From positions 179,304,001-179,368,000 of the forward strand of contig OZ024741.1 in the NCBI GenBank assembly GCA_964016885.1: 64,000 nucleotides of DNA, given 5' to 3'. Source of the stretch: Eledone cirrhosa. Lineage: Eukaryota. Within the stretch, counting starts at the first letter, position 1. The number at the start of each line of letters is the position of its first letter. Positions 233-35,074 of this stretch are shown here, in pieces. A program made the translations under genes and the position numbers. The notes beneath the pieces were generated by a model. The model did not search any database. It worked only from the letters and a program-made list of their open reading frames with translations, and was not told the origin of the DNA.

Positions 233-557
233 TAATTAGTAAAAAATGTTGAAGGATTCACTAAAATTGTTATATTACTAAGAGAGCAACTTAATATATG
301 GTTCTTATATCAAATTATACTGGAATATTTTAACTAAAATAGGAACCCTGGTTTCGTTTTATAGAAAGTTTGGTTGGGGCTGAGTTGGTATCAAAAGGAT
401 TAATAAAATGCCCTAAAAACTCTGCCAATTTTATATTTTGAAAAAAAAATACTCATTTGAAACTGATGAAAAAAATCATAAATATATTTTATTATATAAA
501 GAGAAATAAAATTGTTTTAAAAGGAGACAACTGCAAGCTGACATGCCTTGCTTTTGT

Positions 558-685
558 CTAACTCTCCTCATCCGTGTCTGATAGAAGTAAGAGTTCATCT
601 AAATCTGGTAATGTCATATTTTCAACTTCAGGTTGGAAAGAAGGCATCTGTGCTGAGTATAAAGCTGTCTCAAAGAGTCCTTGTT
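558..685 (-). CDS. Securin/PTTG1-like protein, last coding exon (EQGLFETALYSAQMPSFQPEVENMTLPDLDELLLLSDTDEES*)
   Basis: Polypyrimidine+AG acceptor (ccttttttttctag); phase matches the preceding exon; open to TAG at 560-558; AATAAA at 493-488. Confidence 0.75.
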
Positions 686-1334
686 CTAGAAAAAAAAGGA
701 AACGAGGAATTTAAGATTAACAAAAAGTTTTGGGCTTGTAAATGTTAAGCAAGTTAAATTATTTGAAGAGACATTTTAACCATTCAACAAAACACCAAAG
801 CATACAAAAACCTAAGTTCAACAAGTGATTAACTCTTAACATCCTGTACCACATTAATCTGCATTAGCAAGACATTCTTGAAAAGTGTAAAACAACACTA
901 TGTCTGAATCACATTAAAAACTAATGTCTTCAGTTTACAGTGAACTCTTACAATGATCTATCCACAAATACCAGCAATCAATACTGGCCAGTAACTAAAT
1001 TTCAAATAAGTTGATGTGAAATTGTCATTGATCAGGCCTCAAGAAGTGCAACAAAAGCCTTTTGTTAGCATATTTCTAATGAAATGCACTGCCAATGGGT
1101 TTCAATTAATTTTGAAAAATAAAAAAAATTAGAGGAATTTAGTAAAATAATTATATTTTTTCATTACTTTACAAAAATTTATTACAAGAAATTATGATGG
1201 GAAGTATTAATATAAGTATGAACACATTTGTGTCACAAAAGCAGAGGTGGTTTAAGGTATTTTGAGATCAAAAGGGTTTTTTTTTTTCGGGGGGGGGGGG
1301 GGGGGTTAATGTTTAAAATAACTCTTTCATAATA

Positions 1335-1520
1335 TAATTGTTTCTACTTTTGGCACAAGGCCAGCAATTACCCAGTGCATTACTGGTACTTTATTTTATC
1401 GACCACGTAAGGATGAAAGGCAAAGTTAACCTCGGCAGGATTTGAACTCAGAATGGCAAGGGCCGTAACTCTATGCGTCAAAGCATGGCGTCCGACCCTC
1501 TACCGATACTGCCAATCCAG
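1335..1520 (-). mobile_element. SINE family A copy (others near 10340-10520, 31480-31630, 33420-33700, 41250-41450, 42780-43150, 63520-63790)
   Basis: Recurring block aattgtttcta..ggcacaagg..ttttatcgacc..ggatgaaaggcaaagttaacctcggc.ggatttgaactcagaa; the reverse strand has a B-box-like GAGTTCAAATCC. Confidence 0.7.
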
Positions 1521-1629
1521 GTCACAAAGAATATAATGAAAATTTAGACACAAAGATAAATGTGAAAAGTGTGTGTGAGTGCTGCTGAATAGCTAAAATG
1601 ATTTGCCCCCAATATTTATACATCATAAA

Positions 1630-1892
1630 ACATCCAGTCCACACTGTAAAGTGGTCATGTAGGTGTCACAACAAAAAGCACCCAACCCTCACTGTAAAGT
1701 GGTCGTGTAGGAGACACAGCAAAAAGCACCCAGCACCCACTGTAAATGTCGTTGGCGTTAGGAAGGGCATCCAGCCATAAAAAAAGCAGCTAAAAACAGT
1801 CCTATATGAGCGAGACACAGTCACCCGACCCAACTTGCCTCAAATGGAACAAACCCATCTAACCCATGCTAGCATGGAACAATGATGATGAT
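1630..1892 (+). mobile_element. RTE-type 3' UTR / SINE tail fragment
   Basis: Reverse complement of the 3' UTR of the RTE at 14910-15200; ends in an (ATG)n tail. Confidence 0.7.
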
Positions 1893-2129
1893 AAAAGAAT
1901 ATGATAAAATATTTGATTCTGACATAAATTCCTTTAAGGAACAGCAACATTTACAACATTCCTGCACAAAAATGAAAAGTCCATGCATCCATCTCTTTGT
2001 CCATCACTTCCTGTCTTTTCTATGTCATTTCTGGAAAGATTTTGTTATGGCTCAGTACGCTTCTTATTGTCTGTTATTTTACAGAGAGCATTGGATACAT
2101 TTTAACATCTATAACAAAAATAATTTAAA

Positions 2130-2395
2130 ATAATAATAATAATGAAATGATTGTGTACAATGCTCAGGTGCACTACAACTCATCAAAGGTGCATGTATAG
2201 TACATAGAATAATGTACAAATGTCAGGAAAATGAACAGTGCAGGAGTCATGATATACATGTGTGCCTGTGTATGGAGTGAGGATATCAGGTGTAGTGTTG
2301 GCGAATTTCAGGAAGCATGGAGGTTTTAAAGGATGCAGTGTCTCGGCAGCTCACAACTGATGCAGGTAGTTTGTTCCATGCTTCAGCAACTCTGC
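2130..2395 (-). mobile_element. CR1-clade LINE 3' end fragment
   Basis: Closely similar to 11558-11790, including the (AAT)n tail. Confidence 0.75.
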
Positions 2396-2532
2396 TCTTC
2401 TTCAATCCCATATTATCATGAAATGAGAATCAGAATATGGAACCCAACAAGCATCTCAGCAGCAGATATCAAATTTCCAAATCCAATGTTTGTTTTGGTT
2501 TTTTTTTTTATTTAGTTGTGGCTCTAAGTTAA

Positions 2533-2740
2533 CCCTTTCGCATTTAAACTGACCATATCCGGCCAGAATTCTCATACCTCTTTCTGTTCAAACCACTGTA
2601 AACTGGCCACTCATACTGACGTTAAGGTATTGTTCTCAAAATAAATGATATCAAAATCTAATAGATTCGATATTATGTGAGATAAAGCCTTTACCGTGAA
2701 AATACAATAGTAAATACAGAGTAATGTAAATGCTAAAGGG
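2533..2740 (+). mobile_element. piggyBac-like MITE (~210 bp); further copies at 3867-4085 (+), 5448-5623 (-), 49135-49355 (+), 54296-54490 (-)
   Basis: TIR CCCTTT(A)GCATTTA / TAAATGCTAAAGGG, TTAA flanks in most copies, shared interior across five copies. Confidence 0.7.
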
Positions 2741-3535
2741 TTAAAATCCCACTGAAGTCAACAAAATACCAGTGAAGTACTCGGGATGATTCTTCCTTTC
2801 TCATGTTTTCTTTCTCTTAAAAAATCGGCTGTTATGACTCGTAGAGAGATGGGCTCCACCAAGTTTTAAATTTTCAAATGTATCAGGACCAGGACAGTGC
2901 CACTATGACTACATTTGGAGTTGAGGACACCATTCTTTTCCTTTCCTTAATGGTTCAGGTATTGGGCTCACAATCTTAATGTGATGGGTTTGATTCCCAG
3001 ATTGGATAGTATGTTGTGTTCTTGAGCAAAACACCTTCAGTTCATGGTGGGAATGTCATCTTCTCTCAGTTGTGGGTGCAATAAAATGCACCCAGTACAC
3101 TCTAAAAAGGTTGAAGTGAAGATAATGTAGTGCAGAGAAGACTTTAGTCCTGACAAACCACTGGAAACAACAGTGAAGAAACTTTTAGCCTTATATAGGA
3201 CATATTTCTAGTGTTTGTGATATAAAATGCACTTTCTGAAAAGTGGTTGGTGAACAACTGGAGAGGGCATAACATTTCTAGTTCTACTGCCAATATAGAA
3301 ATCCACCTAGTACACTTGATATAGAGGTTGACGTTAAGAAAGGCATCCAGCCATGAAAACCATGTGAAAAATGAATGTATAAGCAAGACATGGCCCTTTG
3401 GCTCATTTAGAGGAATAATAACTGACTCAGACCATGACAACCCACCGCAACTCACGACACCATGGAAAACAGATATAAAATTATGATGGTGAAGATTATT
3501 TGGAGTGAAATCAACTGAAATAATAGCAGTTATAC

Positions 3536-3685
3536 CTGAAAGTATTGGCAACTCTTCATTGTCAGAGATTGCATGATCCGAGTCACTATCTTGCCAAATT
3601 TTAAAGCATGATGGCTTCCAGCTTAGAAGTTTGTCTATGTATGAGCTGCCACGTTCTTTTTTGGGCCAAATATCTTCATAGTCAT
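3536..3685 (-). CDS. Securin/PTTG1-like protein, coding exon 4 (DDYEDIWPKKERGSSYIDKLLSWKPSCFKIWQDSDSDHAISDNEELPILS)
   Basis: ttttccag acceptor, gtataa donor, 150 nt, phase 1-1, no stops. Confidence 0.75.
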
Positions 3686-5108
3686 CTGGAAAAGAATTAA
3701 ATCGATATTTATGAAAAATAAATGAAACAAAAAAAATGTTTTTTTTTAACTTTTGATACTAATCTAGCTAAAACTAGCTCTAGTTCTGTTAAACAGAACC
3801 ACCCATTTTAAAAGGTTTCTGTTTAAAATAAAACCTTTCAATATTATTTTATATAAAAACCCTTAAGCCTTTAGCATTTGAACCAGCCATATCCAGCCAG
3901 AATTCTCTCACCTCTTCCTATTCAAACCAGCTGTATCCAGCCACTCATACTGATGTTAAGGTATTATTCTAAATAAAAATAATATCAAAATCTCATAGCT
4001 TCATTATTATGTGAGATAATTATGAGGTAAAGTCTTTACCGTGAAAATACTATAGCAAATATAGAGCAATGTAAATGCTAAAGGGTTGTTATGTTACAAA
4101 TACCATCTTAACTGTTTTGATACAATACTGTCTAAAAATCGCCCTGGTTCTATGATACTAAGCTGTTTACTTTAAAATGCTTATATTTATCTAAAACGTC
4201 CATCATAATATCATGTTAAAACCTTTGTTGTTCTAAACACCAACTTAATGATGAGAAATTCATCATCATCAACATTTTACGTCACTAGCATGGGTTGTCC
4301 TGTTGTGGGCAATGTTAGGTCGGCTGACCTTATCTTGCTCATACGGGAACTGATTTTGCCTAACACCAACCTCCTTTACAGTGAGTGCTGGGTGCTTTTT
4401 TCCGTGGCACCTACACGTCCACTTTACAGTCTGGGTGCTTTTTTGTCGTGACACTTCCATGACCATTTTGCAGTGGGAGGGGATGGGGGCATATTGCCTA
4501 TATGCTTCAGCTTGTTCCCGTGGGAAGTTGGATCTTCTGTATTACTACTAAATCCGTTCAAATTCTTAATTATTTTCAAAATCAACTGAAAATTATTCAG
4601 TGTCTTTCATTAGAAATATGGTAATGAAAACATTGATAGGAGCCCCAGTCCTACCATTATTTTTTTTCAGTGACAAGGATTCAAATTAAGAACACAGAGT
4701 TGATTTAGTCTCATGGTCACATCTGCAACCACACATAGCTCACACATTAGGTTAACATCACTCCAACTCACAGAAATTGAATCTGAGATTAATTAGGAAC
4801 ACTTGTACTATAAGAATATAGTAGTTATTAAAGATTACAAATTTATGATTCAGTAATGAAACTAGATACTGATAATTGTGGTATGTTAATGGACAAGAGT
4901 GGTTGTGTAGGTAGGAGCACTAGTTCATTATTTTGCCTGTGAGCAAATGTTATGAGAGCCCCGCCATAAAGTATTGGTCAGCTCAAGGCTCTAGTAGAAG
5001 ATACTTGCCCAAGATACTGATCATTAAAACCATGTGGTTCCAAAGCAAATGTCTTAACCATACCACACTGCCAGCACCTCAAAATATATTGACTTAGTTA
5101 AAGTTTAC

Positions 5109-5229
5109 CATTTTTCTGTGGTGGTCTGTGAGCTTTTTCAATATCATCGTACGTGTTCAGATTCTTACTAGGAATCAACGAACTTTTAAATTGTTTGTCA
5201 ACACTTTTCTTTGGTTTAAAATCTTGTTT
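5109..5229 (-). CDS. Securin/PTTG1-like protein, coding exon 3 (KQDFKPKKSVDKQFKSSLIPSKNLNTYDDIEKAHRPPQKN)
   Basis: ttctgttgcag acceptor, gtaaac donor, 121 nt, phase 0-1; YDDIEK resembles the separase-binding (D/E)IE motif. Confidence 0.78.
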
Positions 5230-5741
5230 CTGCAACAGAAAAAGGAAATATATTTAGACAAACATTATTCTTTTACTATTTTCAGTCATTAGACTCTGAC
5301 TTTAACCCTTTCATCACCTATGTTTTACAATTAATTTTGTGAATAATCATTTTAATTAAAGAAAGCTAGTAAAATAACTAATATTATTTAGCTGGATGTT
5401 CAGTACAGACTCTTCCATAACATTTTTTATTCAAATATGAAGTTTAACCCTTTAGCACATTACTCTATATTTTCACAGTAATTATTTCACATATCGAATC
5501 TATGAGATTTTGATATTTATTTTGAGAACCTTAACATCAGTATGAGTGGATGGTTACAGCTGGTTTGAGCAGAAAGAAATGAGAGAATTCTGGCCGGATA
5601 CAGCCAGTTTAAATACTAAAGGGTTAAAACAAGAGGTTTGTTATCCTAGAACTGGGGTTGTTTTGGGGAAGGTTGATATCAAAAGGGTTAACTATAAATA
5701 ACAAGGTTGTATAAACCTCCCAAAAAAACAAGAGAACTTAC

Positions 5742-5935
5742 CAACTTATTTTCTGAAATATTTGCGAGAGCAGGACGAGTCTTTTTCTTCTTACAAGATT
5801 CCTTTTCAGTATTTTGTTCCCCAAAACCAACTGCTTTTGATAAAGGTGTTTGCCCAGTACGCAAAACTTTATTGATGTCCCCCAGAGCACGGCGTGGGGT
5901 GGCAAAGTTATCTTGGAGATCCTTCTGGTTAGAAA
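5742..5935 (-). CDS. Securin/PTTG1-like protein, coding exon 2 (two D-boxes: RRALGDIN and RPALANISEN)
   Basis: gacag acceptor, gtaag donor, 194 nt, phase 1-0, open frame with RxxL destruction boxes. Confidence 0.8.
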
Positions 5936-6974
5936 CTGTCCATAAATAAAATTTTAAATTAAAAACTTTATCTACAATAATTAGTTATAACATTTCATAG
6001 TTTAAAAAAAAAACACTTAAGTTTTATTGCAGTTATTTGTGGCATTATGCAACTGAGAGGAACACCAGTCCATCACTAGGTTAACCCCAACCCTTAGCCT
6101 AGCTACAACTACCGCTAGTATTCCTATTTTTCCAGCCATCTGGTCCAGAATTCAAACCCATAACTTTATGATCGTGAGATCAACACTAATCACTAAGTCA
6201 TGCACCTTTACTTGTCATACTATAGCCATTTTAATTTGGCATCACCACCACCATCCACTCTCACACTAACACACTAACAATTCCCTCAATCCACCACAGT
6301 ATATTACTGGTACTTTATCAACACTAAAAATGCGAAAACCAAAATTGACCACAGTGAGATGTCTAGTCTAGAGTGGCTGGGTATACCAACACTACCAGGC
6401 AGAATAAATTGACATGCTGGAATATTGAAAATTTTGAGAATCCCTGTTTAAAATAACCAAATTCCCCTTTAATCACTGCACCAATTACACTCTGCAAAGT
6501 GATTGATGTTAGAGAAGGATTCCTACCAAAATATGTAATGTATAAGCAATTTGTGGTCTGAGATCCCTAGGGAGACGCAGAGTGGCTTTGGGCTTCCACA
6601 ACAAAAAACATTTAGTCCACCCTGTACAATGATCATACTAAAAATATGACAAGGGGAAGCACCCAATCCATTCTGTAAAGTGTTTGTGCTGGTGACAATG
6701 AAAAACCACCCAGTTAGATGGTTGTTTTAATGTCATGATAGAAAGCATCCAGTCAATACTGTAACATGGTTGGCATTAGGAAGAGCTTCCAACTGTAGAA
6801 ACCAAGCCAAAATACAGTTCTGTAAGAGCTAGATACAATCACCTGGCTGGCCTGATTTCTCTAACATGACAACTCGTCTAACCCATGCAAGCATGGAAAA
6901 TGGACATTAAATGATGATGATGAAATAAGGTACTCACTACGTTAGTAGAAAATAAGTATATCTATTTTATTTAG

Positions 6975-7345
6975 AAATGAATTCTATAGGACTAGAACTG
7001 TTTCATTTGTATGAAACCATCAGGAATGTCAGACAAAAATTCATCAAATTCATTATTTATAGGTTTATTTGGGATGAATGTTGAGAAGGAGGAGTATAAA
7101 GATTAGGAGGTGAATGGAGGTGAAGAACAACAGAGTAAAAGTAAAAAAGAAGTGTCTTCCTTTTTTTTTCTCCTTTCTTCACTGCGACCATCCCCCTCCC
7201 CTACTCTATCTTCATACTCCTCCTTCTCAACAGTCATCCCAAAGAAACCTATAAATAATGAATCTAACCAATTTTATGACATTCCCGATGACTTCATATG
7301 AATGAAACAGTTTAAGTCCAGTGGAAGTCATTCCTATATAAAATA
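6975..7345. repeat. Degenerate fold-back inverted repeat, possibly a Penelope-like element remnant
   Basis: Arms ~6975-7110 and ~7200-7345 are reverse complements with moderate divergence; each has a C(T/C)GATG..GAAACAG hammerhead-like motif. Confidence 0.55.
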
Positions 7346-7354
7346 CACTAATTA

Positions 7355-8150
7355 TCATCACCGTTTTATCATTATCAATGTTTCCATGCTAGCATGGGTT
7401 AGACAAGTTGTCCTGTTGTGGGCAATGCCAGGTCAGGTGACCATGTCTTGCTCATACGGGACATGATTTTGGCTCGGTTTCTACAGCTGGATGCCTTTCT
7501 TAACACCAACCTCATTTACAGTGAGTACTGGGCGTTATTTTACTGTGGCGCCTACACGACCACTTTACAGTGTGGAGTGGGTGCTTTTTGTCGTGACACC
7601 TACACGACCACTTTACAGTGGGAGGGGTGTGGGGGCATATTGTCTATATGCTTCGGCTTGTACCCATGGGAACTTGGGTCTTCTGTATTACTGTTAATGC
7701 CAGAGGTCTCGGTCCTGTGTCATCGCCTTTGAGAGATGCAATTGGGCAAGGTCAGTTTTTATCACCTCATTCCAGGTCTTCATGGGTCTCCCCACTCCAA
7801 AGCTTCCATCGACTTTTAGTACTCTGCACCTTTTTATGCAACTGTCATCCTTCCTACACATCACATGCCCATACCAACGCAATCTCCTCTCCTGCACACA
7901 TTTGATTCCTTTAATGCTTAGTCTCTCTCCCTTAATTCGTTTATGCTTTGTCATTCGCGTATATTACTATTATACATCCATTGGAGCATGCAAGCTTCAT
8001 TTCTTTCTAATCTACGCAATTCTTCGCACACAACGCCCAGGTCTCACTACCATGTAACATTGCTGTTCGTATGCACGCATCATACAGTCTGCCTTTCATT
8101 TGGGGGGAAAAGCTTTTTGCAGCTAACAGTGGTAGTAGCTCCCTGAACTT
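7355..8150 (-). mobile_element. RTE LINE 3' fragment (older copy of the family at 14910-17367)
   Basis: ORF 7694..7954 (RRLRWYGHV..GRPMKTW) and 3' UTR align with the long RTE copy. Confidence 0.85.
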
Positions 8151-8389
8151 CCAAGTTATAATTCCATCCTTTAATATTCTAAATTATTTTTATCTTAAAC
8201 CTAACTCACACGCAGACTTAATTTAACCTCTATCCTCTCATGAACAAACAATAAAAGACAAAATCCTCCAATTATCACCAAACAATCATGCAGTGCTTCT
8301 ACCCCTGAAACCCAAGAAAAGAGAAAGATACTCATGCAGCTCCGTCCCTATCAAGCACAGAACCACTAATTCCATGAGGTGCACAGTGT

Positions 8390-9050
8390 AATTTATGGAC
8401 GCACAAGAGATGCAGTGGGATTGCAGGCAGGTTAATGGAAGATATAAAGCACAAAGAGCACAAATGAAAGATGCCTTTAGTTGCCAGGGAGGCTCCCTAG
8501 AAATAGTTGACAGCTTTTGTTATCTGCGCGGTCAAATTAGCAGTGGAGGATGATGTGCCAAAAGTGTGATAGCTAGGATAAGAACAGACTGGAAGAAGTT
8601 TAGAGAGATGTTGCCACTGCTGACAACAAAGGAGTTTTCTCTCAGAGAAAAGAGTAGATTGTACAAGGCCTATGTACTAACTGCAATGCTACATGACAGT
8701 GAAACATGGGCCTTGCCTGCAGAAAACATGTGGAAGCTAGAAAGAAATGAGCCAAGTATGCTCCAAAGGATGTGTAATGTTAGTGTGTATGAGCAGTAAA
8801 TTGAGGGAAAACTTGGCATGAGAAGAATTGGATGTAGTATATAAGAGAAGACTGTATTGGTAAGGACATGCGATGCATAAAGAAATGCAGAGAAACCCCA
8901 GTGGCTGGGACCCATGGAAGAGGCAGACTCGGGGAAAACATCGGATAAGGTTGTGAAGAGCGACCTTAAAAAAAACTAAACCTCACAACAGAAATGACAA
9001 AGGACCACAAGGGCTGGCATAATGCTGCATTGGTGAAGACCCAGCCTACA
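8390..9050 (+). mobile_element. Degraded RTE LINE C-terminal fragment
   Basis: ORF 8566..8799 ARIRTDWKKFREMLPLL..AMLHDSETWAL matches the RTE C-terminus; stops and frameshifts present. Confidence 0.8.
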
Positions 9051-10098
9051 GCATACGATGTGGCCCGACTTATCCTTGAGTCCCCCTCCCCTCCCACTAG
9101 AACTCCCTAACAGGTACTATCACCATCATTACAGCACCCACACATACATGCACCCCCTACACTCACTCCTTAGCTGCTTCCCCCTTAAGTCTCTAGACTC
9201 CCTCACTATAGCACTCTGGTAGCCACTCTCCTCACACTTATGTACCCCACCCATACTCCTGCCACATTATTCCACCCATGCTCTCTCCTGTATTCCCCCT
9301 AAACCCCTTAGATACTCTATCACCCCTCTAGTAGCTAACTCTCTGCACCCCTACCCATTCCCTTCCGCTATCACTCCTTAGCTATTCTCTTCATCACTAC
9401 ACCTCCCATTTCCAGTACTGGTGAGTGACACTCCCACTACCTAAGTGTTCTGATCTTCATAGAAAAAAAAGGATCAAGAGGACCCTTCAGTTATGCAACA
9501 GTCCAGCAACCTCTCTAGTATTGATCTACACAATATACACACCCAATACATGTTGTAAAGTGGCTGGTGATAGGAAGGGCATATAACCGTATAAAGTTGC
9601 CCAAACAAGAGTTAGGACTCCTCCTCTCAGTCATGTCAAAGACATGAAGGCCCCTCTAGTGTTGGTGATAGGAAGGGCACCCAGCCATAGAAAGCTTTCC
9701 AAAGAAAGGGTTGGGAGAACCCTTTAGTTGTGTCAAAGACATGGCAACCTCTCATGAGTACACAGTAAAAAGTGAGACATATGTAAGATGCAGACTCTTG
9801 ACCCGTGAGGGGGGGGGGGGGGGGCACTTCAGTATTGATTTGGTTTGTGTGAACTTATCCAATCCTTGTTAGCAAGGAAAGGGAATGTTAAAACGACAAT
9901 GATACATACATACACACACACACACACATAACAGGCTTTGTACAGTTCTGTCTACTAACTAGATTCACTAACAAGGTTGGCCGACAGAAAGTGCCATGCA
10001 ATAGAAGCAAATTTCTTAATCACATGCCTGTACTGTATAGCATGGACAGACATTTTTTTCTATGATAATTAAAATAAAAAGTTGATAAAGATACATAC

Positions 10099-10171
10099 CT
10101 CCTCTGCTCTTTAAATTGGCTGAGAACCCAACATTTTCTTTGGCTAAAAAGTCCAAATGTACTGATGTCAT
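10099..10171 (-). CDS. Securin/PTTG1-like protein, first coding exon (MTSVHLDFLAKENVGFSANLKSRG)
   Basis: Acceptor at 10180-10179, ATG at 10171, KEN box at residues 11-13, gtatgt donor in phase 1. The five exons sum to 666 nt (221 aa + stop). Confidence 0.8.
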
Positions 10172-10918
10172 TGTGAAACTGCCATAAAAAGGAAGAGAAA
10201 AAGCAAATCTAGATTAATAGTAGTTGATAGCTTTTGCTACCTATATGACCTAATTGGTTATGTAGGAAGTCGCTCTAAAAGCATAGCAGCTAAAATAAGA
10301 GCAGGATGGAAACAGTTCAGGGAGCTACTACAAAAGGTAATAATTGTTTCTACTTTTGGCACAAGGCCAACAATTATCCCAGTGCATTACTGGTGTTTTA
10401 TTTTATCGACCCCATAAGGATGAAAGACAAAGTTAACCTCGGCGGGATTTGAACTCAGAACGTAAAGGGCCATAACTATACTGCAAAGCACGGTCTCTGA
10501 CGCTCTATCGAATAATGGTGGAACAGTATGATGGCAAAAGCAAAGCTTAGAAAACAGATATGGAAGGACTGGCAAGATGAGGGAAGCAGAGAACAATACC
10601 AAGAAGCTAGGTGTCAAGTACACACTGCAAGAGAAGTAGAAAGGAAGGGGCTATGTAGCCGGTAAGAGTGTCCGACACCATGAGTGCGGCCCGAGTTAAG
10701 ACAATTTGAACTCTTTGCCACCGTCAATTGTTAAAAAAACAAGTCAAAATCATTTAGTTGTCCATTCGTAACGTACGTTACACTTTAGTTACATACACGC
10801 ACTACACGTAAATGCATAAACAGATACACACAACAGCAGGAAGGGGCTGTGGAATCGGATTCCACTACCCCTTTTATAATCGATCGCTGTTCCAGCATCG
10901 ATCTGGGTAGGGAACTAA

Positions 10919-13900
10919 TGTAGCGAAATCTGTCCGCGCCTTGAACATTGGGTGATACCTAAAAGTTAAATTCTAGATCAATACCCTTTTGGTGTAGACA
11001 GGTTGATGCGTTGGCTATCCCAAGGTGGGGAGACAGGGAGCGATAGCTATATAAAGCCTATATTTTCCCACTTTACACAGAGAGACATCAGAGCGATACG
11101 ATACACAACTAACTATGTAAAGATTAACCGCTAACTTCAGACCCCAGAGGTCTACAGAAAAGCCAGAGACATCGGAGCATTACGCTAGCAACTATGTAAG
11201 GATTCACCACTATCAACATACCCCATGGGGTCTACAGATACACACACACAGATTGGAGCCCTATTACTACAGACCATGTACACAGTGGTCTACCACCAAT
11301 TACAGACCATTCAGAGATATACAAACCATATCTCTCTCTCTCTTACTAACTACGGTCTCACAACTACTACCAAGGACTCCAAATTCCAACAACAATTATC
11401 TGTCGCTCGCTGTTTTCACTTCAACAAAAACAATTATCTATGGCTCGCTGTTTTAACACCAACAACAACAGCCTCACATCAGCAGCAATAACTACATTAA
11501 CTCTCGGTAACTGTTTTATATGTACTTTATAATTGATTCACGTGAAGTAAACTATATAATAATAATAATAATAATAATGAAATTATTGTGTAAAGTGCTC
11601 AGGTGCACTACAACTCGTCAAAGGTGTATATATAGTACATAGAATAATACACAAATGTCAGGGAAGTACATGTGTGTATGTGTTAGCTGTAGTGTTGGCG
11701 GATCTCGGGAAGCATGGAGGCCTTAAAGGATGCAGTGTCTCGACAGCTAACAACTGATGCAGGTAGTTTGTTCCATGCTTCAGCAACTCTGAGCGTGAAA
11801 AAATGTTTCCGAAAGTCATGGGAACTGTGCTGTTTTCTTACTTTGTGGGCATGTCCACGTGTGTTAGACACATGGAAATCAAAAAGGTACTCAGGGTTGT
11901 TGTTGGCAACATGGTTAACAATTTTGTGGGTGTTTACCAAGTCAGTTGCCAGGCGTCGGAGCTTCAATGTATCCATGCCCAGGGAAGCAAGGCGCTCAGA
12001 GTATGGTAGATGCCTGATGGAGGGTATTCGCTTGGTTGCACGTCTCTGAACAGTTTCCAGGCGGTCAATGTTCTGAGCAAGATAGGGGTTCCAGACTGGT
12101 GATGCAAATTCTAAGTGTGGTCACACCATAGCCATGTACAGCCTTAAATAGATATCTGAAGAGCGGCTGACAAAGGTCTTGTTGAGTGATGCTAAGACAC
12201 CCTCGGCCCTCTTGACAATTTTAGAGACATGCCTCGTCCAACGCAAATCGCTGCTGATCGTAATGCCCAGGTCACGTTCACAAGAAGACTTCTTGATATT
12301 AGTGCTGTGGAGGGAGTATGTGGATGCTGGGATTTTACTCCCAAAATGCATGGTGGTGCACTTGTCCACAGCTAGCTTGAGTTGCCAGTCTGAGATCCAT
12401 TGTTGCATTGTGTCCAGGTCAGACTGCAAGCAAGATCTATAGTGTTCAGGATCTGTCCTCAAGGTACAGCTTGATGTCGTCTGCGTACTTTAGTACTGTG
12501 GCATTCTTTAAGTTGGCATCTATGTCATTAATATATGCCACAAACAAAAGGGGGCCAAGAACAGATCCCTGTGGTACACCAGATGACATCTCATATGGTG
12601 AGGAATGCTGTCCCAGAACCGTGACTACCTCTCTTCAACTGAGAATGAAGGACTTCAACCAGTTAAAAAGATCATCCTTCACACCCATTGCAGAGAGTTT
12701 TGCCATAAGCCTTTTGTGTGGCACAGAATTGAAGGCCTTCGCAAAGTCAAGGTAAACAACATCCACCCATGAGCCGCCATCACTGATCCGGGTGATGTCC
12801 TCAAGAAACTCTATAAGTTGATCACAGCAGCTGGAGTTGGGGATAAATCAAATTGCGAGGACCGGATAAGACTGTGAGAGCTCCAGAAGTTCCAAAGTGT
12901 TTCTCTGACACAGGATTCCATCAGTTTGGCGATGCAACTAGTAAGACTGACTGGATGATAGTTCACAGGTGATGTGTGGTCACCCTTTTTGAACAGAGGA
13001 ATGACACTGGCAGTTTTCCACTGTTCTGGAGTAGCACTGTTGTTCAGACAGAATTGGAAGAAGCGTGATAACTGGTGCAGAAGGAAGTACCCACCACGTT
13101 TAAGAAGCAGGTACGTAACACTATCAAGACCAGGAGAGGCATGGTTGCGTTTATTTTTTTAGGTGACGTCGCAGCATTGCAGGTGTAAATTCCATGGTTG
13201 TAATAGAGTCCGGTGTCATAGGTGGTGGAGATGGTACACTCTGGTCTTCAATAGTGAAAATGCCTGCATAGCATTCAGCAATGAGCTCTGTGCATTCCTT
13301 GGGATCGTCAGTAACCTGGCTTGTGTGGGGATTGCGAAAAGGACCACTGGAGAGTGAAGCCTCTGCTTTGAGTGAACATACTTCCAGAACACCTTACTGT
13401 CAGGGCTGGCTGCTATGCGCTGCTCAAATTGAAGCACTGCCTTTTTTGTCACCTGTTTGAGGTGGTTGGACGATCTATTTCACCTCTTCTTATTAATGTC
13501 TGATTTGTGAAGTTTGTACTCACGTTCAGCATTGCGCCGTTCTTTTCTGGCAAGACGGACTGCTGCAGTCTCCCAAATTGCACTTTTGGGATGTTTTTTC
13601 CACTTACGTGGCACCGATGCTGCACATGCTGTCCATATTGAGCTCAGGATGTTCTGGAGTACAGTGTTGACATCTCCAGAGTCGTAGAACTCAAGCCAGT
13701 TTGGCCATTGCAACTCGGTGCAGTAACAGTTCCAGTCTGCTTTATTCCAGTCAAAGTGAGCAGTTTGGAGATGGTTGTGGTTCTTGTTACTGCCCATGAG
13801 GGATAGATTGGCAATGATCATAGCATGATCAGAGTCACCTAAAGGTTCCTCAGCAGTAACACTAATGACCGTTTCAGGAGTAGTGGTGAAGAGTAGGTCC

Positions 13901-14053
13901 AAAGTGTTGTCACCTCTCGTTTTCACCAAATCATTTATTCTTTATATTCTCGTTATTACACCTATTCTTCTTATTATTGCTATTTCAACTATTATTCATG
14001 TTAATCAAATAACAATAACTATTTCTTAATTCATTATCATACCCTTCGCTAAA
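10919..14053 (+). mobile_element. Solo LTR (Gypsy-like) interrupted by a CR1 insertion
   Basis: Starts TGTAGCG and ends ..acccttcgctaaa; 10919-11555 plus 13930-14053 are colinear with the inverted copy at 29249-29727; internal TATATAAA. Confidence 0.65.
11558..13929 (-). mobile_element. 5'-truncated, frameshifted CR1-clade LINE (end of APE, RT, 3' UTR, (ATT)n tail)
   Basis: TRGDNTLDLLFT..SDH (APE end), YLDFAKAF, SGVPQGSVLGP, KYADDIKLY, and NTRGH..FFTLRVAEAWNKLP C-terminus. Confidence 0.9.
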
Positions 14054-14390: not shown

Positions 14391-14420
14391 AAAGAATAGA
14401 AGTGTAACACACAAGTTATT

Positions 14421-14805
14421 ATATATTGGTAAACGGAATAGAAAATGCTGACAAATTGTTCACAGTTGAAAAATGGTTTAATTAGGAATAAAAGAGTATT
14501 AGTGATTGTATGGGTTAGTATTCAGTTGTGGTTTTAAGTTTTTAAGTTTTTACCGGTTGCGCATTTCTAAATGCTTTTCAAAAATAATTTTGAGATAGAG
14601 TGTCCGTGCTGTTTGCTCTGATCGGCACGGACACTCTATCTCAAAATTATTTTTGAAAAGCATTTAGAAATGCGCAACCGGTAAAAACTTAAAACCACAA
14701 CTGAATACTAACCCATACAATCACTAATACTCTTTTATTCCTAATTAAACCATTTTTCAACTGTGAACAATTTGTCAGCATTTTCTATTCCGTTTACCAA
14801 TATAT
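14421..14805. repeat. Near-perfect ~190-bp-arm palindrome between (TA)n tracts
   Basis: Arms 14421-14609 and 14625-14805 are reverse complements apart from one 8-nt duplication; loop ~15 nt. Confidence 0.9.
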
Positions 14806-14907
14806 ATATATATATATATATGGTTTTCTGAAGAGGAAGCTGAAAATAGGAACAGTTAAATAAAAATTCAGTACATTAAGTAGAGTGGGGACATAACACA
14901 CACACAT

Positions 14908-17367
14908 GATATCATCATCATCATCATCACCGTTTTACGTCCGTTCTTCCACGCTAGCATGGGTTAGACGGGTTGTCCTGTTGTGGGCAGTGTCTGGTCG
15001 GCTGACCATGCCTTGCTCATACAGGAACTGATCTGGCTTGATTTCTACAGCTGGATGCCCTTCCTAACACCAACCTCATTTACAGTGAGTGCTGGGTGCT
15101 TTTTCGTGGCGCCTACACGTCCACTTTACAGTGTGGGCTGGGTGCTTTTTTGCCGTGGCACCTCCACGACCACCTTGCGGTGGGGGGGGGGGGGGGGCAT
15201 ATTGTTTATATGCTTCAGCATGTACCCATGGGAGGTCGGGTACCCTGTATTACTGCGTGACGCCAGAAGTCACGGTCGTGTGTCATTGACTTTGAGAGGT
15301 GTAGTTGGGTAAGGTCGGCTTTTATCACCTCATCCCAAGTCATCTTGGGTCTCCCCACTCCGCGGTTTCCATCAACTTCTAGTGCTCTGCACCTTTTTAT
15401 GCAGCTGTCATCCTTCATACGCATCACATGTCCATACCAGCGTAACCGCCTCTCCTGCACGCAGCATTTGATTCCTCTTATGCTCAGTCTCTCTCTCAAT
15501 TCATTTATGCTTTGTCGTTCACGTATATTACTGTTACACATCCATCGGAGCATGCAGGCTTCGTTTCTCTCTAATCTACGTAAGTCTTCCACCTTCAGCG
15601 CCCAGGTCTCACTACCATGCAACATCGCTGTTCGGATACACGCATCATACAGTCTGCCTTTCATTCTGAGGGAGAAGCCTTTTGCAGCTAGCAGTGGTAG
15701 TAGTTCCCTAAACTTCTTCCATCCCGTTCTTACCCTAGTTATTGTACTTTCTGAGCACCCACCTCCGTTGCTAATTCGGTCACCTAGGTAGCAGAAGCTG
15801 TCTACTGTTTCTACAGGGCCCTCCCAGAGATTGGTGGTACTTGTTTCCTGTGGCTGTTTGCTTGCTGTTTCAGCACAGCTGCTGCATGTGAATCCTACAT
15901 TCTTAATTAAGCTTCCTGAGATCCCGCTACATCTCTTGTGTACCCATTGTTTGCATTTGGGGCAAAGAATGGAGTTCCTACCTACACCTTTCCTACATAC
16001 TGAGCAAGGCCATTTCCCTGAGGGGATCTGGGTTCTGTTTTCTCGTCTACTTATAAGGACCTTAGTCTTTGTCATGTTGACTTTGAGGCCCTTTCTCTCT
16101 AGTCCCTGCTTCCAGGTTTGGAATTTATTCTCTAGTTCTACCATAGATTCAGCTATGAGTGCGAGGTCATCAGCATACAGGAGTTCCCATGGGCATCCGG
16201 TCTTAAACTCCTCCGTTATTGCCTGCAGGACTATGATGAACAGGAGAGGGCTAAGAACAGAGCCCTGGTGGACCCCAACCTGTACGCTAAATTCCTCGCT
16301 ATACTCATTGCCAATCCTAACTTTGCTGACTGCTCCCCTATACATGGCTTGTACCGCTTTCACAAGCCATTCATCTACTCCTAGTTTTCTAAGAGCCCAC
16401 CAGATTACTGCACGTGGAACTCTGTCAAAGGCTTTCTCAAGGTCGACAAATGCCAAGTAGAGTGGCTTACTTTTAGCTAGGTACTTTTCCTGTAATTGCC
16501 TCACAAGGAAGAGCGCATCAGTGGTGCCTTTCCCTGGAACAAACCCAAATTGCATCTCGTCTATATTCACCCGGTCCCTAATCAGCTGTGCTATAACTCT
16601 TTCTGTTACTTTCATGACCTGGTCCATCAACTTTATACCTCTATAGTTTCCTCTATCTAGTGCATCGCCTTTACCTTTGTAGCAGTTGACAATGATGCTA
16701 CTGCACCAATCTTTTGGTATGGCCCCCTCTAGTATTACCTGGTTAACGATACGTGTGGTTATAGTGTGACCTACAGACCCAGATGCCTTCAGCATCTCGG
16801 CAGCTATACCCGATGGACCGGTTGCCTTCCCTATCTTCATATCTCTGATTGCCTTACTTACTACGCTGCCGCTGACTTGTACTGCTGGTCCCTCTATAGG
16901 GTCTACGTGGGGTAGGGTCTCTTCTTCCCATGCATTCTCCTCATTTAGTAATCTATCATAATGACTCTTCCATGCATCTTTCTTCTCAGCACTTGTGAGG
17001 GCAAGCTCACCTTTATCATTCCGGATACACTTCTCTCCAATGACATCACAACTATCTCTGACACACTGCCTCGCAATCTTGAATACCTCCTGTTTCTGGT
17101 CCTCACGTTGTAAAACATGCTTGAATTTTCTATCCTCTGCTTCCCTCCTAGCTAAGTATACTTGTCGCCTAGCTTCCCTCTTGGTCTCTATGTAATGTAC
17201 CCTGCTCCCCCCGTTCTTCCATTCTTTCCATGCCTGTCTCTTGGCCTTGACTGCTTCATCTACCTTATTGTTCCACCACCAAGTCACTCTCCTCCTGCTT
17301 GAGGTCTTACTCCAGCCACAAACCTCATCCGTCGCCTCTAGTAAGTTATTTTTTAGGAACTCCCATG
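14908..17367 (-). mobile_element. Young 5'-truncated RTE-clade LINE
   Basis: Uninterrupted RT ORF, 3' UTR and (TGA)n tail at 14908-14930; endonuclease domain absent; 5' end abuts (TA)n. Confidence 0.92.
15215..17367 (-). CDS. RTE reverse transcriptase with PHD-like zinc finger (partial ORF, no APE domain)
   Basis: NYRGIKL, FVDLEKAFDRVP, GVHQGSVLSPLLF, LLYADDL, CSVC..CPKCKQWVHKRC..CSSC, RRLRWYGHV. The first ~11 codons of the track ORF are microsatellite. Confidence 0.9.
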
Positions 17368-17651
17368 ATATATATATATATATATAAATACACACACACA
17401 CACGGCGGACATCTGTCGACCAAATATTTCACTCAGAGCATTGGTCAATCCAAAGCGACAGAAGACACTTGAAAACGCCATTGTTGTTGCTGATTCACAC
17501 ATTGCCTATGCCTTCTGTTCACCGCCCCTTTCAAAATCGAATAATCATTTGTACCTCTGAAACAATTAATTAATTTCGTGTATCGCTGAGTATTGATCGG
17601 GCAGGCTCAGATAAATCGACTCGTGTTGCTATCGTGCAAATACATCGATAC

Positions 17652-17691
<40 letters not shown>

Positions 17692-17772
17692 AAAGTTTTA
17701 TTTAAAATTGTTGGTTTACAACAAGTAAATATTTTATAACTGATATAAAGCACTCGACAAGTTTTGGAGTAG

Positions 17773-18078
17773 ATATACGATATTAAACAAATGGAAACTA
17801 TATTTATAAAACCATATTTATTTCATTATACATATTTCGGGGATACCATATTAAAAATATGGCATGCCTTCTTCAGATAAAATACAATATATAAACAGTT
17901 TTATAAATAATTTTGACGTACCATAAATATTGAGCAACCGTTATGTAGGAAGCTGTTTATATATTGTATTTTATCTGAAGAAGGCATGCCATATTTTTAA
18001 TATGGTATCCCGAAATATGTATAATGAAATAAATATGGTTTTATAAATATAGTTTCCATTTGTTTAATATCGTATATA
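17773..18078. repeat. Fold-back inverted repeat (~128-bp arms) carrying a hammerhead-ribozyme-like motif; probable Penelope-like element end
   Basis: Arms 17773-17900 and 17953-18078 nearly identical in reverse complement; CTGAAGA-hairpin-CGAAA-TATG-TA at 17975-18021. Confidence 0.7.
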
Positions 18079-18411
18079 TATATATATATATAACATATAT
18101 GTTATACATAAAGTTAAACAATGAAAGAATAACAATGTGGGGTATTAATTAAAATATATGTATATATAAAGTAGCAAAAGAAATGTTTTCCCACGGTGTT
18201 TTCTTTCGCCACACACACGCTAATATATACATATATACTTGTTATTAAGAGTCGCTGTTTATTTTGAACCAGTTAGTTATTAGCAAATAAATATACATAC
18301 ATACATACATATATAAAATTATTCATAAAAAACACAGCATGTTCAATTATCATGAAATAATAACTGCACACAGAGAGAAGTAAGATTTTAAAATAGTGTC
18401 CAAATATTTAC

Positions 18412-18500
18412 CGTTACAGCAGAATAGCAATATGAATGAATGACAGACTGCTTCTGTTTAACGGGAAAATAATATTTTCAAATTTCGCTCGCCAATCAGA
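18412..18500 (-). promoter_or_regulatory. Candidate promoter and non-coding first exon of the securin-like gene (CCAAT box + CHR)
   Basis: Minus strand reads ctgATTGGcgagcgaaaTTTGAAaat: CCAAT at 18492-18496, CHR TTTGAA at 18482-18477, then a short exon ending cg|gtaaat at 18412. Confidence 0.55.
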
Positions 18501-20330: not shown

Positions 20331-20723
20331 TAGATTCTTTATTTTCCGAATGATGGAAAAGGACTAGGCTGAATTATCAACCCATTTTACTTTTATAAAG
20401 AAACGTTATGCAACATAAAACTACAGGAAAGCAAAATATACGTAAAATAACAACACTTAGTTTCAACAAAGGATAAGCAAAAATAATATTACAACAACAT
20501 TATTGTGTTTTAAAAATGTGTTTATTTTTTTTCACAAATATACAAATAAAATGTGTTTGCGGGTACTTTTACAATATACACATATCAAGAATGACCGTAC
20601 ACAATTTAAGAACATCTAAACAGTTCTCAGTAATGTTTATGTCACAGTATTTAAGCAAAGTTTATGAGTGTATAATTTCTCAGTTCATTACTTCATGTCT
20701 TCAAGCCTTGGTCACTTCGTTAC

Positions 20724-22595
20724 TTATGACGAGCAGTGATTCCCGTCAGAAGTAGATGATGTGTGTAGTTTGGACATGATAGGTGAGCAGAGTTTCTGTG
20801 CTTCTTTAAATTTGTAGGTAAATTCATCTGTGTCTGCTAAACTGTTGGTGTCTATCCACTCTAACGTCTCGTTACACATATCAAGTGCCTGTTTCTTATC
20901 TTGCTCAGATAGTTTATCGTTGTCTGCATCGAGTGCTTGTTTCACATTGAATATGTATTGTTCCAATTCATTTTTAGCTGCAATACGTTGCCGTTGTTTT
21001 TCGTCTTCTGCCTCATATTCTTTAGCTTCGTTTATCATTCTTTCGATTTCCTCTTTACTTAAACGACCTTTGTCGTTGGTGATGGTAATTTTGTTGCTTT
21101 TTCCTGTGCTTTTATCAACAGCAGAAACGTTGAGTATTCCATCAGCATCCATATCAAAAGAGACTTCTATTTGCGGTACACCTCTGGGAGCTGGTGGAAT
21201 GCCACTCAGCTCGAAACGTCCGAGACAATTGTTGTCTTTTGTCATTGCTCTTTCTCCTTCGAATACCTGGATAGACACACCCGGCTGGTTATCTGAATAG
21301 GTAGTGAATACATTGGATGCTTTACACGGGATTCTGCTGTTGCGCTCGATAAGTTTGGTCATCACACCACCAGCCGTTTCTATTCCAAGTGACAAAGGTG
21401 CTACATCTACAAGCAATACATCTTTTATGGAATCGCTCGTATCTCCAGAGAGAATTGCAGCTTGTACGGCAGCTCCGTAGGCGACAGCTTCGTCTGGGTT
21501 GATGGATTTGTTGATAGGCTTTCCTTGCATGAAATCCTGAAGTAATTTCTGGATTTTGGGAATGCGTGTTGATCCACCGACCAACACAATGTCATGGATA
21601 CTGGATTTATCGAGCTTGGCATCTCGCAGAGCTTTTTCAACTGGTTCTAAGGTGGATCGGAAAAGATCACTACAAAGATCTTCGAAGCGTGCTCTGGTAA
21701 TCTTCGAGTTAAAATCGATGCCTTCATAAAGAGAATCCAATTCCACCGAAGCTTCTGTACTACTCGATAGGGTTCGTTTAGCTCGTTCACATGCTGTACG
21801 CAAACGCCTGATAGAGCGTGGGTTTTCTTTGATATTTTTCTTGTGTTTACGTTTGAATTCGTCGACAAAGTGATCAACTAGCCGGTTGTCGAAGTCTTCT
21901 CCACCCAGATGTGTGTCACCAGCTGTAGCTTTCACCTCAAAAAGAGATCCCTGGTCAATTGCCAAGATGGAAACATCGAATGTACCACCGCCCAAGTCAA
22001 AAATCAAAACGTTCTTCTCACCAGATAAGTTTTTCTCGAGACCGTAAGCGAGTGCGGCGGCCGTTGGTTCGTTTACAATTCTCAACACATTCAAACCAAC
22101 TATATTGGCCGCATCTTTCGTTGCCTGTCTCTGTGAATCATTAAAGTAGGCCGGTACTGTTACTACTGCGTCTTTAACTTTACAACCCAGGTAAGACTCA
22201 GCTGTCTCCTTCATTTTATTCAACACCATCGAACTAATCTCTTCGGGTGAAAACTGCTTTTTCTCTCCCTTGTACTCCACTTGCACATGTGGTTTGTTAC
22301 CATTTTTGTTCACTACCCCGAATGACCAATATTTCATGTCGTTTTGTACAGAGGTATCGTTAAAGTGACGTCCAATTAAACGTTTAACATCGAATACTGT
22401 GTTCTTTGGGTTGAGGGTCGCTTGGTTTTTTGCTGCATCACCCACCAATCTTTCGGCATCCGTAAAAGCTACGTAACTTGGAGTTGTCCTGTTTCCCTGG
22501 TCGTTAGCAATGATTTCTACTTTGCCATGTTGAAACACACCTACACAGGAATAGGTTGTTCCTAGATCGATACCAATAGCAGGTGCTTTCACCAT
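20724..22595 (-). CDS. HSP70: Intronless inducible-type cytosolic HSP70, copy 1 (623 aa, no C-terminal EEVD)
   Basis: All three family signatures ([37 protein letters not shown]), cytosolic RARFEDL motif, DVLLVD linker. Confidence 0.97.
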
Positions 22596-22789
22596 TCTTT
22601 TTACTCTATGTAGCCTTGTGAAAACTTGTAAATAGCTTCCAAACTTTTTTTCCTTCTCGTTATCTTTTGGTAATGTTTGTATTTCTGTTATATGTATATA
22701 TTAAATTAGATGTGTATAACTTATAACAAATGTTTCTTAAGTAAGATCCTTCTCGCCAGTTGTACACAGCAGAGCTTCCGTAAATATTT

Positions 22790-22926
22790 GAATGACACAG
22801 CTAAATGATTCAGGTTATATATATAGTTGAGAGTTACTTCCCCTACCTACTCTCACGCCATCGTATTTTAACTAGTTACTTCTACAATATTTTAAAGTGT
22901 TCAACGAGTTTCTGGAACTTTCCAGA
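22790..22926 (-). promoter_or_regulatory. HSP70 copy 1 promoter: heat-shock element, TATA box, initiator
   Basis: tTTCtgGAActTTCc at 22909-22923 (three inverted nGAAn units), TATATATATAA at 22825-22815, TCATT initiator near 22795. Confidence 0.85.
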
Positions 22927-23854
22927 TGCATCGCCATAGTTCCATTACTTCTTTTACACATAGACGTGAATTTGAATAGGTTGTTTGTTAAAAATGTTTA
23001 CATTTTAGCAAATAAAACCTGTTTTGTGAATATATTGCTCTAAAACTTCATACAGTCGTTTATAATTAGATATCGCCCCCACACATTGCTGGACATAACA
23101 GTTTGAAATACAGTCACACCACACATTTTTCGATACTTTGGATAACACACCTACGCCGGATTATACGTTTTGTCGGACTAACAGAAGTCATGTAATAATA
23201 ATTCATAGTAAATTCCAAATAAACTATAGCCACTTATTAGTATGTCTCACTACCAGACATTATGAACACACATTTGTTTATTTATAAAAATCACACGAAA
23301 GAAACACTCTTCCTACCCACTCATTATTTTCCTCAATCGATATGGACTTATGTTTACGTTTTACACTAGTACTTACACTTGCACTGTTCTGGATAGCCAT
23401 ATCTAGGTATATATGTAAATAAAACACTGAGGCTGCAGTAGCCACCGATATCAGTATATTCAAATAATTACAAATAGCAAATAATCACGTTCCGATTAAA
23501 AGTGCCAAGCTATTAAATACCAGAAAACCCGGAGGATTACCTGTATTTGTATAGCAAATCTTTCCCTTTTTGACCAAGTTTCGCTAGAAATAGCAGCCAA
23601 ATCTCTGTCCAAATTATATCCTAGCATTTTTAAACAAGGGAAAGAACGCATTGTATAATGTAGTTTTAGATATACTTCTTTTGGAGGAAGAAGTGGATTG
23701 TTCATTGTTGGAAAGTCTTTCATCGTGGGGTTAGACAACAACGAACTCATAGAAAATTCATGCAACCTTTAATAAACCTCGAAATCATTGAGCCTCACCA
23801 AGGTTTTTTTTATTCTTCGAAATTATTTCTCAATCCTTACGTTGTTGTATTTCC

Positions 23855-27896: not shown

Positions 27897-28089
27897 TCTT
27901 TTTACTCTATGTAGCCTTGTGAAAACTTGTAAATAGCTTCCAAACTTTTTTCCTTCTGGTTATCTTTTGGTAATGTTTGTATTTCTGTTATATGTATATA
28001 TTAAATTAGATGTGTATAACTTATAACAAATGTTTCTTAAGTAAGATCCTTCTCGCCAGTTGTACACAGCAGAGCTTCCGTAAATATTT

Positions 28090-34235: not shown

Positions 34236-34245
34236 TAAAAAAAAA

Positions 34246-34923: not shown

Positions 34924-34986
<63 letters not shown>

Positions 34987-35027
34987 CATATATATATACA
35001 TATATATATATATACATATATATATAC

Positions 35028-35074
<47 letters not shown>

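Follow-up and report, generated by a model that had tools for sequence, protein, structure and literature searches.

A Five-Exon Gene of Eledone cirrhosa as the Likely Octopod Securin

We analyzed a stretch of 64,000 nucleotides (hereafter, the window) from contig OZ024741.1 of Eledone cirrhosa and found a five-exon gene that is very probably the octopod securin. The gene is real, and it is a single gene conserved across octopods. It represents an expected gene that standard searches miss and not a new system. A securin in this animal is unsurprising because a separase-bearing animal is expected to have one, and mollusc homologues were linked to vertebrate securin in 2019. A separase gene with the catalytic His and Cys motifs lies elsewhere in the genome. 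When an octopod separase protein was sought, the only hit was a millipede separin (one of three candidates); most of the genomic separase exons were misplaced when aligned to this protein, and the alignment was left unused.

Gene structure

The minus strand carries all five exons, with coding positions running from 10171 to 558, and they join into 666 nt, that is, 221 amino acids plus the stop. The four introns are each GT-AG, with phases 1,0,1,1. The 221-residue spliced frame put forward in the preliminary description is thus borne out by introns, phases and an orthologue that matches the same five exons. The features of the locus are as follows.

18412..18496, minus strand: tentative promoter with an inverted CCAAT box and a CHR-like TTTGAA at 18482, and tentative non-coding first exon with an ATG-free stretch and a donor at 18411; one genome match for the region
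10099..10178, minus strand: coding exon 1; a strong acceptor, 7 nt of 5' UTR and then the ATG at 10171, coding part 10171-10099 (73 nt from the ATG), residues 1-24, KEN box (residues 11-13) at 10141-10133, phase-1 donor GTATGT at 10098; 78% to the orthologue by tblastn
5742..5935, minus strand: coding exon 2; 194 nt encoding residues 25-89, a TPRR site of CDK type at residue 37, D-box 1 RRALGDIN at 5894-5871, Lys-rich stretch, D-box 2 RPALANISEN at 5777-5748, phase-0 donor GTAAGT; 77% to the orthologue by tblastn, one genome match
5109..5229, minus strand: coding exon 3; 121 nt encoding residues 90-129, which include the basic linker and, at 118-120 (5145-5137), the DIE of the predicted pseudosubstrate, whose P1 is His; phase-1 donor; 66% to the orthologue
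3536..3685, minus strand: coding exon 4; 150 nt, residues 130-179, DYEDIWPKKER as the best-conserved block, followed by what is predicted to be a short helix and then by an acidic stretch; phase-1 donor
558..685, minus strand: coding exon 5 (last); 128 nt, residues 180-221, acidic tail with the conserved TLPD-x-DELLLLSD, TAG at 560-558
488..493, minus strand: AATAAA, candidate polyadenylation signal 65 nt past the stop

Splice sites were scored with a generic splice matrix and ranked against 3334 GT and 3365 AG sites. The donors of the four introns ranked at percentiles 99.6, 99.1, 92.8 and 91.2 of the GT sites, and the coding acceptors at percentiles 75.4, 100, 94.9 and 99.7. The exon-2 acceptor is weak, yet it preserves the reading frame, which the other AG close by does not, and the orthologue concurs. 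The decisive check was a tblastn search with the Octopus bimaculoides protein XP_014776499.1, which matched exactly these five exons at 65-78% identity. Additionally, the read-through translation of another genomic contig loses its likeness to the orthologue at the same exon-2 donor. The contigs of three sequencing runs, which represent one sample, run across the introns and are therefore uninformative on splicing. The gene was found once in the genome. Human PTTG1 has five coding exons with phases 1,0,1,1.

Position 10178 directly follows a strong acceptor (99.3rd percentile of the 3365 AG sites) that stands 7 nt ahead of the ATG; therefore, the gene probably begins with a non-coding exon further upstream. 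The stretch at 18412..18496 was tentatively taken as promoter and first exon from its sequence, but this candidate is weak, as a similar arrangement appeared in 74 of 300 simulations. At the other end, the AATAAA at 488..493 is the only AATAAA or ATTAAA from the stop to the start of the window.

Octopod orthologues and conservation

The orthologue of O. bimaculoides (XP_014776499.1; LOC106873580; UniRef A0A0L8H0T8) shares 166 of 226 residues (73%) and is collinear across all four junctions. RefSeq models this gene without a name, and "uncharacterized" is the only description that the protein carries, just as the preliminary description had anticipated. Its term "hidden" holds for the missing name but not for the gene, which was already modelled in O. 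bimaculoides. The Argonauta hians orthologue, the hypothetical protein Ahia01_000867900, has 126 identical residues and differs by a Thr/Ala-rich insertion before the DIE motif. Both orthologues carry the same motifs and belong to the same length class, and neither has been named by function. The full-length orthologues share their end point, and the proteins measure 221-247 amino acids.

Invariance was counted over the three octopod proteins (E. cirrhosa, O. bimaculoides and Argonauta), and conservation was found to be concentrated on the motifs. LAKENV (6/6), DDIE (4/4) and YEDIWPKKER (10/10) are fully invariant, followed by TLPD-x-DELLLLSD (12/14), the D-box 1 region (8/10) and D-box 2 (7/10). 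The linker keeps 10 of 28 residues and the whole protein 112 of 221.

The representatives search yielded 13 matches, two of them orthologous. Three others were ankyrin-repeat proteins with a likeness limited to about 25 residues around GQTPL, and eight further long proteins that matched this same stretch were dropped on that ground. The word-based homologue search with exon 2 confirmed none of 17 candidates, and the metagenome scan with alignment A1 none of 340 candidate stretches. The alignment-based searches brought up no homologue from beyond the octopods.

Protein motifs and predicted disorder

The 221-residue protein harbors KEN at 11-13, RRALGDIN at 39-46, RPALANISEN at 78-87 and DIE at 118-120, with a pI of 10.05 in the N-terminal half and 4.17 in the C-terminal half. 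The KEN box stands at 11-13 in all three octopod proteins, as do two D-boxes of the RxxLxx[IV]xN type, at 39 and 78-80. The motif order proposed earlier (KEN, two D-boxes, basic linker, DIE, acidic C-terminus) was therefore recovered, with KEN, the D-box cores and DDIE invariant. Its YDDIEK element was only partly conserved, since the Tyr is His in both orthologues while DDIE is retained.

The pseudosubstrate patch reads DIEKAH, DIEKAY and DIENVH in the three octopods. With the register set by analogy to human 113-EIEKFFP, P1 is H, Y and H, never Arg. None of the three proteins contains ExxR, which is weak evidence alone, about 0.5 being expected by composition. The (phi)E end of the securin motif NxLx(phi)E is present as D/N-Y-E in all three, and its N and L positions are not conserved. 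The LPE docking motif, which in vertebrate securin follows the Glu by about 15 residues, is absent, with WPK in its place in all three proteins and the only LP[DE] near the C-terminus.

The protein is predicted to be small and intrinsically disordered: the Atlas pLDDT was 0.46, FoldIndex was below 0 in all three octopod proteins, and AlphaFold2 gave a mean pLDDT of 51 and a pTM of 0.14 with a two-sequence alignment.

Comparison with known securins

Human securin (PTTG1; PF04856; separase complex PDB 7NJ1) has its KEN at 9-11, its D-box at 61-68 and six exons (PMC9267054). EIEKFFP starts at 113 and LPE stands at 130; conservation of LPE is limited to vertebrates and a part of the lower eukaryotes (PMC6858450). 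Behind the pseudosubstrate lie NxLx(phi)E (PMC10317155) and F125/F128, a region that resembles the ABBA motif (PMC8280194). The octopod protein shares with it a length of about 200 amino acids, disorder, KEN near residue 10, a D-box, a basic linker, (D/E)IE near 115-120 with a non-Arg P1, a D-aromatic-E block just behind and an acidic tail; DYEDIWPKKER occupies the place of human DFESFD/LPE. In contrast, its sequence cannot be detectably matched to the human one, it has two D-boxes where human securin has one, WPK stands for LPE, His or Tyr replaces Phe at P1, and the tail lacks the proline-rich SP region.

Securin homologues have been reported in bivalves and gastropods, namely Mizuhopecten (XP_021355525.1), Crassostrea, Lottia, Biomphalaria and Pomacea, with a profile of N-terminal KEN, D-boxes and an invariant Glu patch (Cromer 2019). 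The octopod protein shares this profile as described. "Octopus" has no occurrence in the supplement text of that study, and the papers listed in the literature searches contained neither a cephalopod securin nor LOC106873580.

For the securin family of Pfam (PF04856), the gathering cutoff was 22 bits, and matches with E up to 10 were also inspected. The profile search suggested in the preliminary description did not recover the gene: none of the five exons, neither of the two orthologues, nor this locus in the genome scan matched PF04856. The exons and orthologues gave only sub-threshold matches to unrelated Pfam families. The sole PF04856 match in the genome (E 3.68, below the cutoff) was a Thr-rich low-complexity frame on another contig and was rejected, and no other securin was found above the cutoff in the genome. 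Exon 3, P0001 and alignment A1 were also compared with the sequences in the PDB, and none of them matched a solved securin chain.

The ESM Atlas search, by contrast with these alignments, ranked a securin cluster of Mollusca first (0.94; 202 of 256 shared features) and a securin cluster of Chordata second (0.93; 194 of 256, with PF04856 on 51%). The mollusc cluster is nearest by model features, although its representative is longer (314 aa). The structure rows had a TM of 0.30 or less throughout, and exon 2 alone gave only scores below 0.9, which are uninformative. The language-model features point to securin clusters, and the putative link to named securins depends on this one search, a method that yields no alignment, together with the motifs; the alignment-based searches connected the protein to no named securin. 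Against the link, two of the three species have His at P1 in place of a large hydrophobic residue, and 13 residues separate the two Glu positions, compared with 11 in human. The securin reading of the preliminary description was nevertheless strengthened, as an interpretation, by motif order and invariance, predicted disorder, the top securin-named clusters and the foreseen lack of a name for the orthologue.

Alternative explanations

That the exons are a chance series of exon-like fragments, or the remains of a dead gene, has a negligible probability. KEN and [DE]IE alone carry no meaning because each arises about twice per simulated 11 kb (2.4 and 2.1, respectively), but the frame is open over five exons, it is 73% identical, through all the junctions, to what RefSeq models in a different species, and its conservation is concentrated on motifs, all of which argues against chance. 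Two D-boxes within one open frame appeared in none of 200 simulations, the pattern having been defined after the motif was seen. A more serious competitor, still improbable, is a disordered APC/C substrate or inhibitor that would occupy Cdc20/Cdh1 with its KEN and two D-boxes and have no action on separase. Yeast Acm1 and Mes1 are such competitive APC/C inhibitors. The KEN and two conserved D-boxes exceed the degrons of human securin, the ABBA-like F125/F128 region of securin fits this view, and a PF04856 match is missing. However, the invariant DIE, non-Arg P1 and following D-aromatic-E block are placed as in securin, the top Atlas clusters are securins, and the genome offered no other securin candidate.

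Another KEN/D-box protein is highly improbable, and this reading, be it as geminin, as sororin or as the N-terminal portion of a cyclin gene with a missed cyclin box, is largely refuted. The D-boxes do resemble those of B-type cyclins, and exon 2 by itself pointed to a cyclin-B1-like cluster at 0.84, which is no more than a lead; yet the frame ends at TAG, and both full-length orthologues stop at that point and lack a cyclin box. The genome scans for geminin (PF07412) and sororin (PF09666) matched nowhere at all and are therefore uninformative. The orthologues themselves had no geminin, sororin or cyclin Pfam match. The longest heptad run is 1-2, so a geminin-like coiled coil is not expected. 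Sororins have a conserved FGF motif and a sororin domain; here, FGF was found in one of three proteins, at residue 6 only. The gene accordingly shows no better match to geminin or sororin, in agreement with the preliminary description, and securin is the preferred reading.

Proposed mechanism

From human, worm and yeast structures, the octopod protein would bind separase as an uncleavable pseudosubstrate, a brake holding sister chromosomes together, until the APC/C destroys it at anaphase onset. The C-terminal half, from about residue 115, may run antiparallel along separase, with D118-I119-E120 filling the P6-P4 sites and His123 at P1, instead of Arg, leaving the catalytic site unprimed. DYE(131-133) and IWP(135-137) might occupy the exosites that NxLx(phi)E, F125/F128 and LPE engage in the human complex, while the acidic tail could reach the basic HEAT/TPR surface. 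The N-terminal KEN and D-boxes would stay free, to be read by APC/C-Cdc20/Cdh1 after the spindle checkpoint is satisfied; they would direct ubiquitination of nearby lysines, and separase would be released and cohesin cut. CDK phosphorylation of T37 (TPRR), beside D-box 1, may tune destruction. Rather unlikely, though less so than the alternatives above, is a rewired securin in which the two D-boxes and KEN also give competitive APC/C inhibition and YEDIWPKKER is a lineage-specific docking motif replacing LPE, co-evolved with a separase of greatly enlarged regulatory insert (open frame of 869 codons).

Implications

The assignment would name an essential cell-cycle gene left unnamed by Pfam and RefSeq in octopods, add cephalopods to the molluscs for which securin homologues were listed in 2019, and provide a G2/M marker and a target for work on cephalopod mitosis, meiosis and regeneration. 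Models of cell division are unchanged by this candidate. Across the three sequences, the securin motifs fixed under fast divergence would be DIE, D-aromatic-E and x-P, not LPE or the P1 Phe, and these fixed motifs can seed a better invertebrate securin profile.

Gene model and orthologues

All motifs of the preliminary description lie on the minus strand, and its five exons with matching phases and a 221-aa product were recovered as a GT-AG chain:

Coding exons of the candidate securin gene (window positions)
10171-10099, minus, coding exon 1
5935-5742, minus, coding exon 2
5229-5109, minus, coding exon 3
3685-3536, minus, coding exon 4
685-558, minus, coding exon 5, ending in TAG

The four GT-AG introns measure 4163, 512, 1423, and 2850 nt (phases 1, 0, 1, and 1), and the spliced ORF has 221 codons plus TAG. 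Scored with a generic matrix against all GT or AG sites of that strand, all but one of the eight splice sites of the coding exons exceeded the 91st percentile; the exception, the exon-2 acceptor, reached the 75th percentile of AG sites. A strong acceptor sits 7 nt 5' of the ATG, which implies a putative non-coding exon upstream. In simulated 11-kb stretches, KEN alone and [DE]IE alone were frequent by chance, and two D-boxes sharing one frame arose in 0 of 200, a pattern defined post hoc with the motif already known. Three sequencing runs of one sample behaved as genomic DNA.

The exon-2 query against 1.84 billion cluster representatives resulted in 13 proteins, two of them orthologous; the other 11 match over a short stretch only, and the three inspected are ankyrin-repeat proteins. 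The Octopus bimaculoides orthologue (P0001, XP_014776499.1, 226 aa) has the same residue as the window model in 166 of 226 alignment columns (18/24, 50/65, 27/40, 43/50, and 28/42 for exons 1 to 5), is collinear with it, and lands by tblastn precisely on the five exons. It is named "uncharacterized protein LOC106873580", just the kind of annotation that had been anticipated. A further orthologue, Ahia01_000867900 of Argonauta hians (247 aa), came from the second homologue search, in which three of 513 candidates scored, none from outside octopods. Because the orthologues agree, the gene model is settled, and since the only matches of P0001 in the Eledone genome are these five exons, the gene was found once. 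Homology thus places the animal among the octopods.

Conservation and comparison with human securin

The three octopod proteins share 112 invariant positions of 221, which are clustered:

Invariant positions across the three octopod proteins
LAKENV (KEN box), 6/6
TPRRALGDIN (first D-box), 8/10
Second D-box, 7/10
Basic linker, 10/28
DDIE, 4/4
Stretch immediately after DIE, 2/9
YEDIWPKKER, 10/10
Block after YEDIWPKKER, 12/16
C-terminal TLPD block, 12/14

The N-terminal half of the window model is basic (pI 10.05) and the C-terminal half acidic (pI 4.17). Disorder was predicted by FoldIndex in all three proteins and by an Atlas pLDDT of 0.46; AlphaFold2, from an alignment of two sequences only, gave a mean pLDDT of 51 and a pTM of 0.14.

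The motif positions agree with those published for human securin: KEN 9-11 and D-box 61-68 (PMC9267054), pseudosubstrate 113-EIEKFFP with LPE at 130 (PMC6858450), DFESFD with F125/F128 (PMC8280194), and the NxLx(phi)E motif with a hydrophobic P1 (PMC10317155). However, the octopod protein has two D-boxes, lacks the N and L of NxLx(phi)E, and carries WPK in place of LPE. The P1 residue after DIE is His, Tyr, and His, thus His in two species where human securin is hydrophobic, and never Arg; ExxR is absent from all three proteins.

Using PSI-BLAST, Cromer et al. 2019 (10.1101/606285) had linked vertebrate securin with proteins of bivalves and gastropods that bore no name; the PNAS supplement includes Mizuhopecten, Crassostrea, Lottia, Biomphalaria, Pomacea, Lingula, and others, with 0 occurrences of "Octopus" in its text as distinct from its figures. 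No cephalopod securin was found in the accessible literature, mostly outside subscription journals (PMC4254928 included).

Probable identity as securin

Pfam PF04856 (Securin) matched neither the exons, the orthologues, nor the genome locus, so the profile-HMM check proposed earlier came out negative, and PDB sequence searches returned no relevant match. The same profile, which misses this gene too, found no further candidate above its cutoff in the genome. In an ESM Atlas feature search with P0001, the top rank went to a mollusc cluster of 51 members that bears the name "Securin" (0.94, 202 of 256 features). A chordate cluster, "securin isoform X2", came second (0.93, with PF04856 marking 51% of it), followed by an arthropod cluster that has no name (0.93). 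As 4-10 of 100 shuffled proteins reach 0.9, the score by itself is only a lead; the result counts because the named family was the one predicted in advance. The presumed partner is encoded on contig C6: a separase gene with two PF03568 matches above cutoff, similarity to human separin (E 6.7e-12), and the catalytic motifs CGHG and GCSS.

We consider it likely that this gene, one to be expected in such an animal, is its securin, and the annotation is sound. Acm1 and Mes1 are APC/C inhibitors, and the degrons would fit a pure inhibitor of that kind; the securin-like positions of DIE and DYE do not, which makes this reading improbable. Slightly less probable still is geminin, sororin, or a cyclin fragment: the coiled coil, a conserved FGF, and the cyclin box, respectively, are absent, and the better match to geminin or sororin that was named as the refuting case did not appear in Pfam scans of the two orthologues. 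An artefact, excluded by the orthologues, is hardly credible.

For the putative octopod securin, we infer separase binding, inhibition, and degradation by analogy with the human complex, as described in PMC10317155, PMC6858450, and PMC12609080. The C-terminal half would run antiparallel along separase, with DIE occupying P6-P4, the non-Arg P1 blocking catalysis, and the YEDIWP block in exosites. The N-terminal half, left free, would be read by the APC/C through KEN and the D-boxes; ubiquitination of lysines would then lead to destruction of the protein, release of separase, and cohesin cleavage.

Neighbouring features and the separase locus

Further features of the window
11683-13941 and 15215-17428, minus, repeats
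14417-14810 and 17770-18080, repeats
18411-18496, minus, single-copy stretch with an inverted CCAAT box, a CHR-like TTTGAA, and a splice donor
20364-23757 and 25659-29036, 3.4-kb tandem duplication, 97.1% identical
20724-22640 and 26025-27896, minus, intronless Hsp70 ORFs (PF00012) within the duplication
30013-30381, minus, frame with a helicase motif
~34100-40350, ~6 kb of almost pure TA/CA microsatellite, GC 12-16%
~51000-62100, minus, ADAM10/Kuzbanian-type metalloprotease exons (reprolysin and ADAM10 Cys-rich Pfam matches, HEIGH zinc motif)

The stretch 18411-18496 possibly holds a G2/M-type promoter and exon 1 of the candidate securin gene; a similar arrangement arose in 74 of 300 simulations. 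The repeats between it and the coding exons include a 737-codon LINE reverse-transcriptase frame that carries a PHD finger, fragments of another LINE, and a pair of long palindromic elements. Hsp70 proteins usually end in EEVD; both frames stop without it, and the first copy has a degenerate look-alike in frame directly after the stop. The motif at 30013-30381 is PIF1/Helitron-like, and a Pfam search of that frame at E 0.001 gave no match.

A weak Peptidase_C50 match (E 9.9e-5) on contig C5 (stretch L005, G000:C5:31466403-31466960, plus) lies inside a 2772-codon open frame. Instead of another separase, this frame probably encodes a caspase-family protein of the CHAT type. Within the separase gene, a single, mostly low-complexity open frame of 869 codons (L008:4864-7470, minus; G000:C6, ~82.440-82.442 Mb) lies directly upstream of the protease-domain exons. 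This suggests a much enlarged insert 2, and ExxR-type sequences near the end of the frame could be autocleavage sites.
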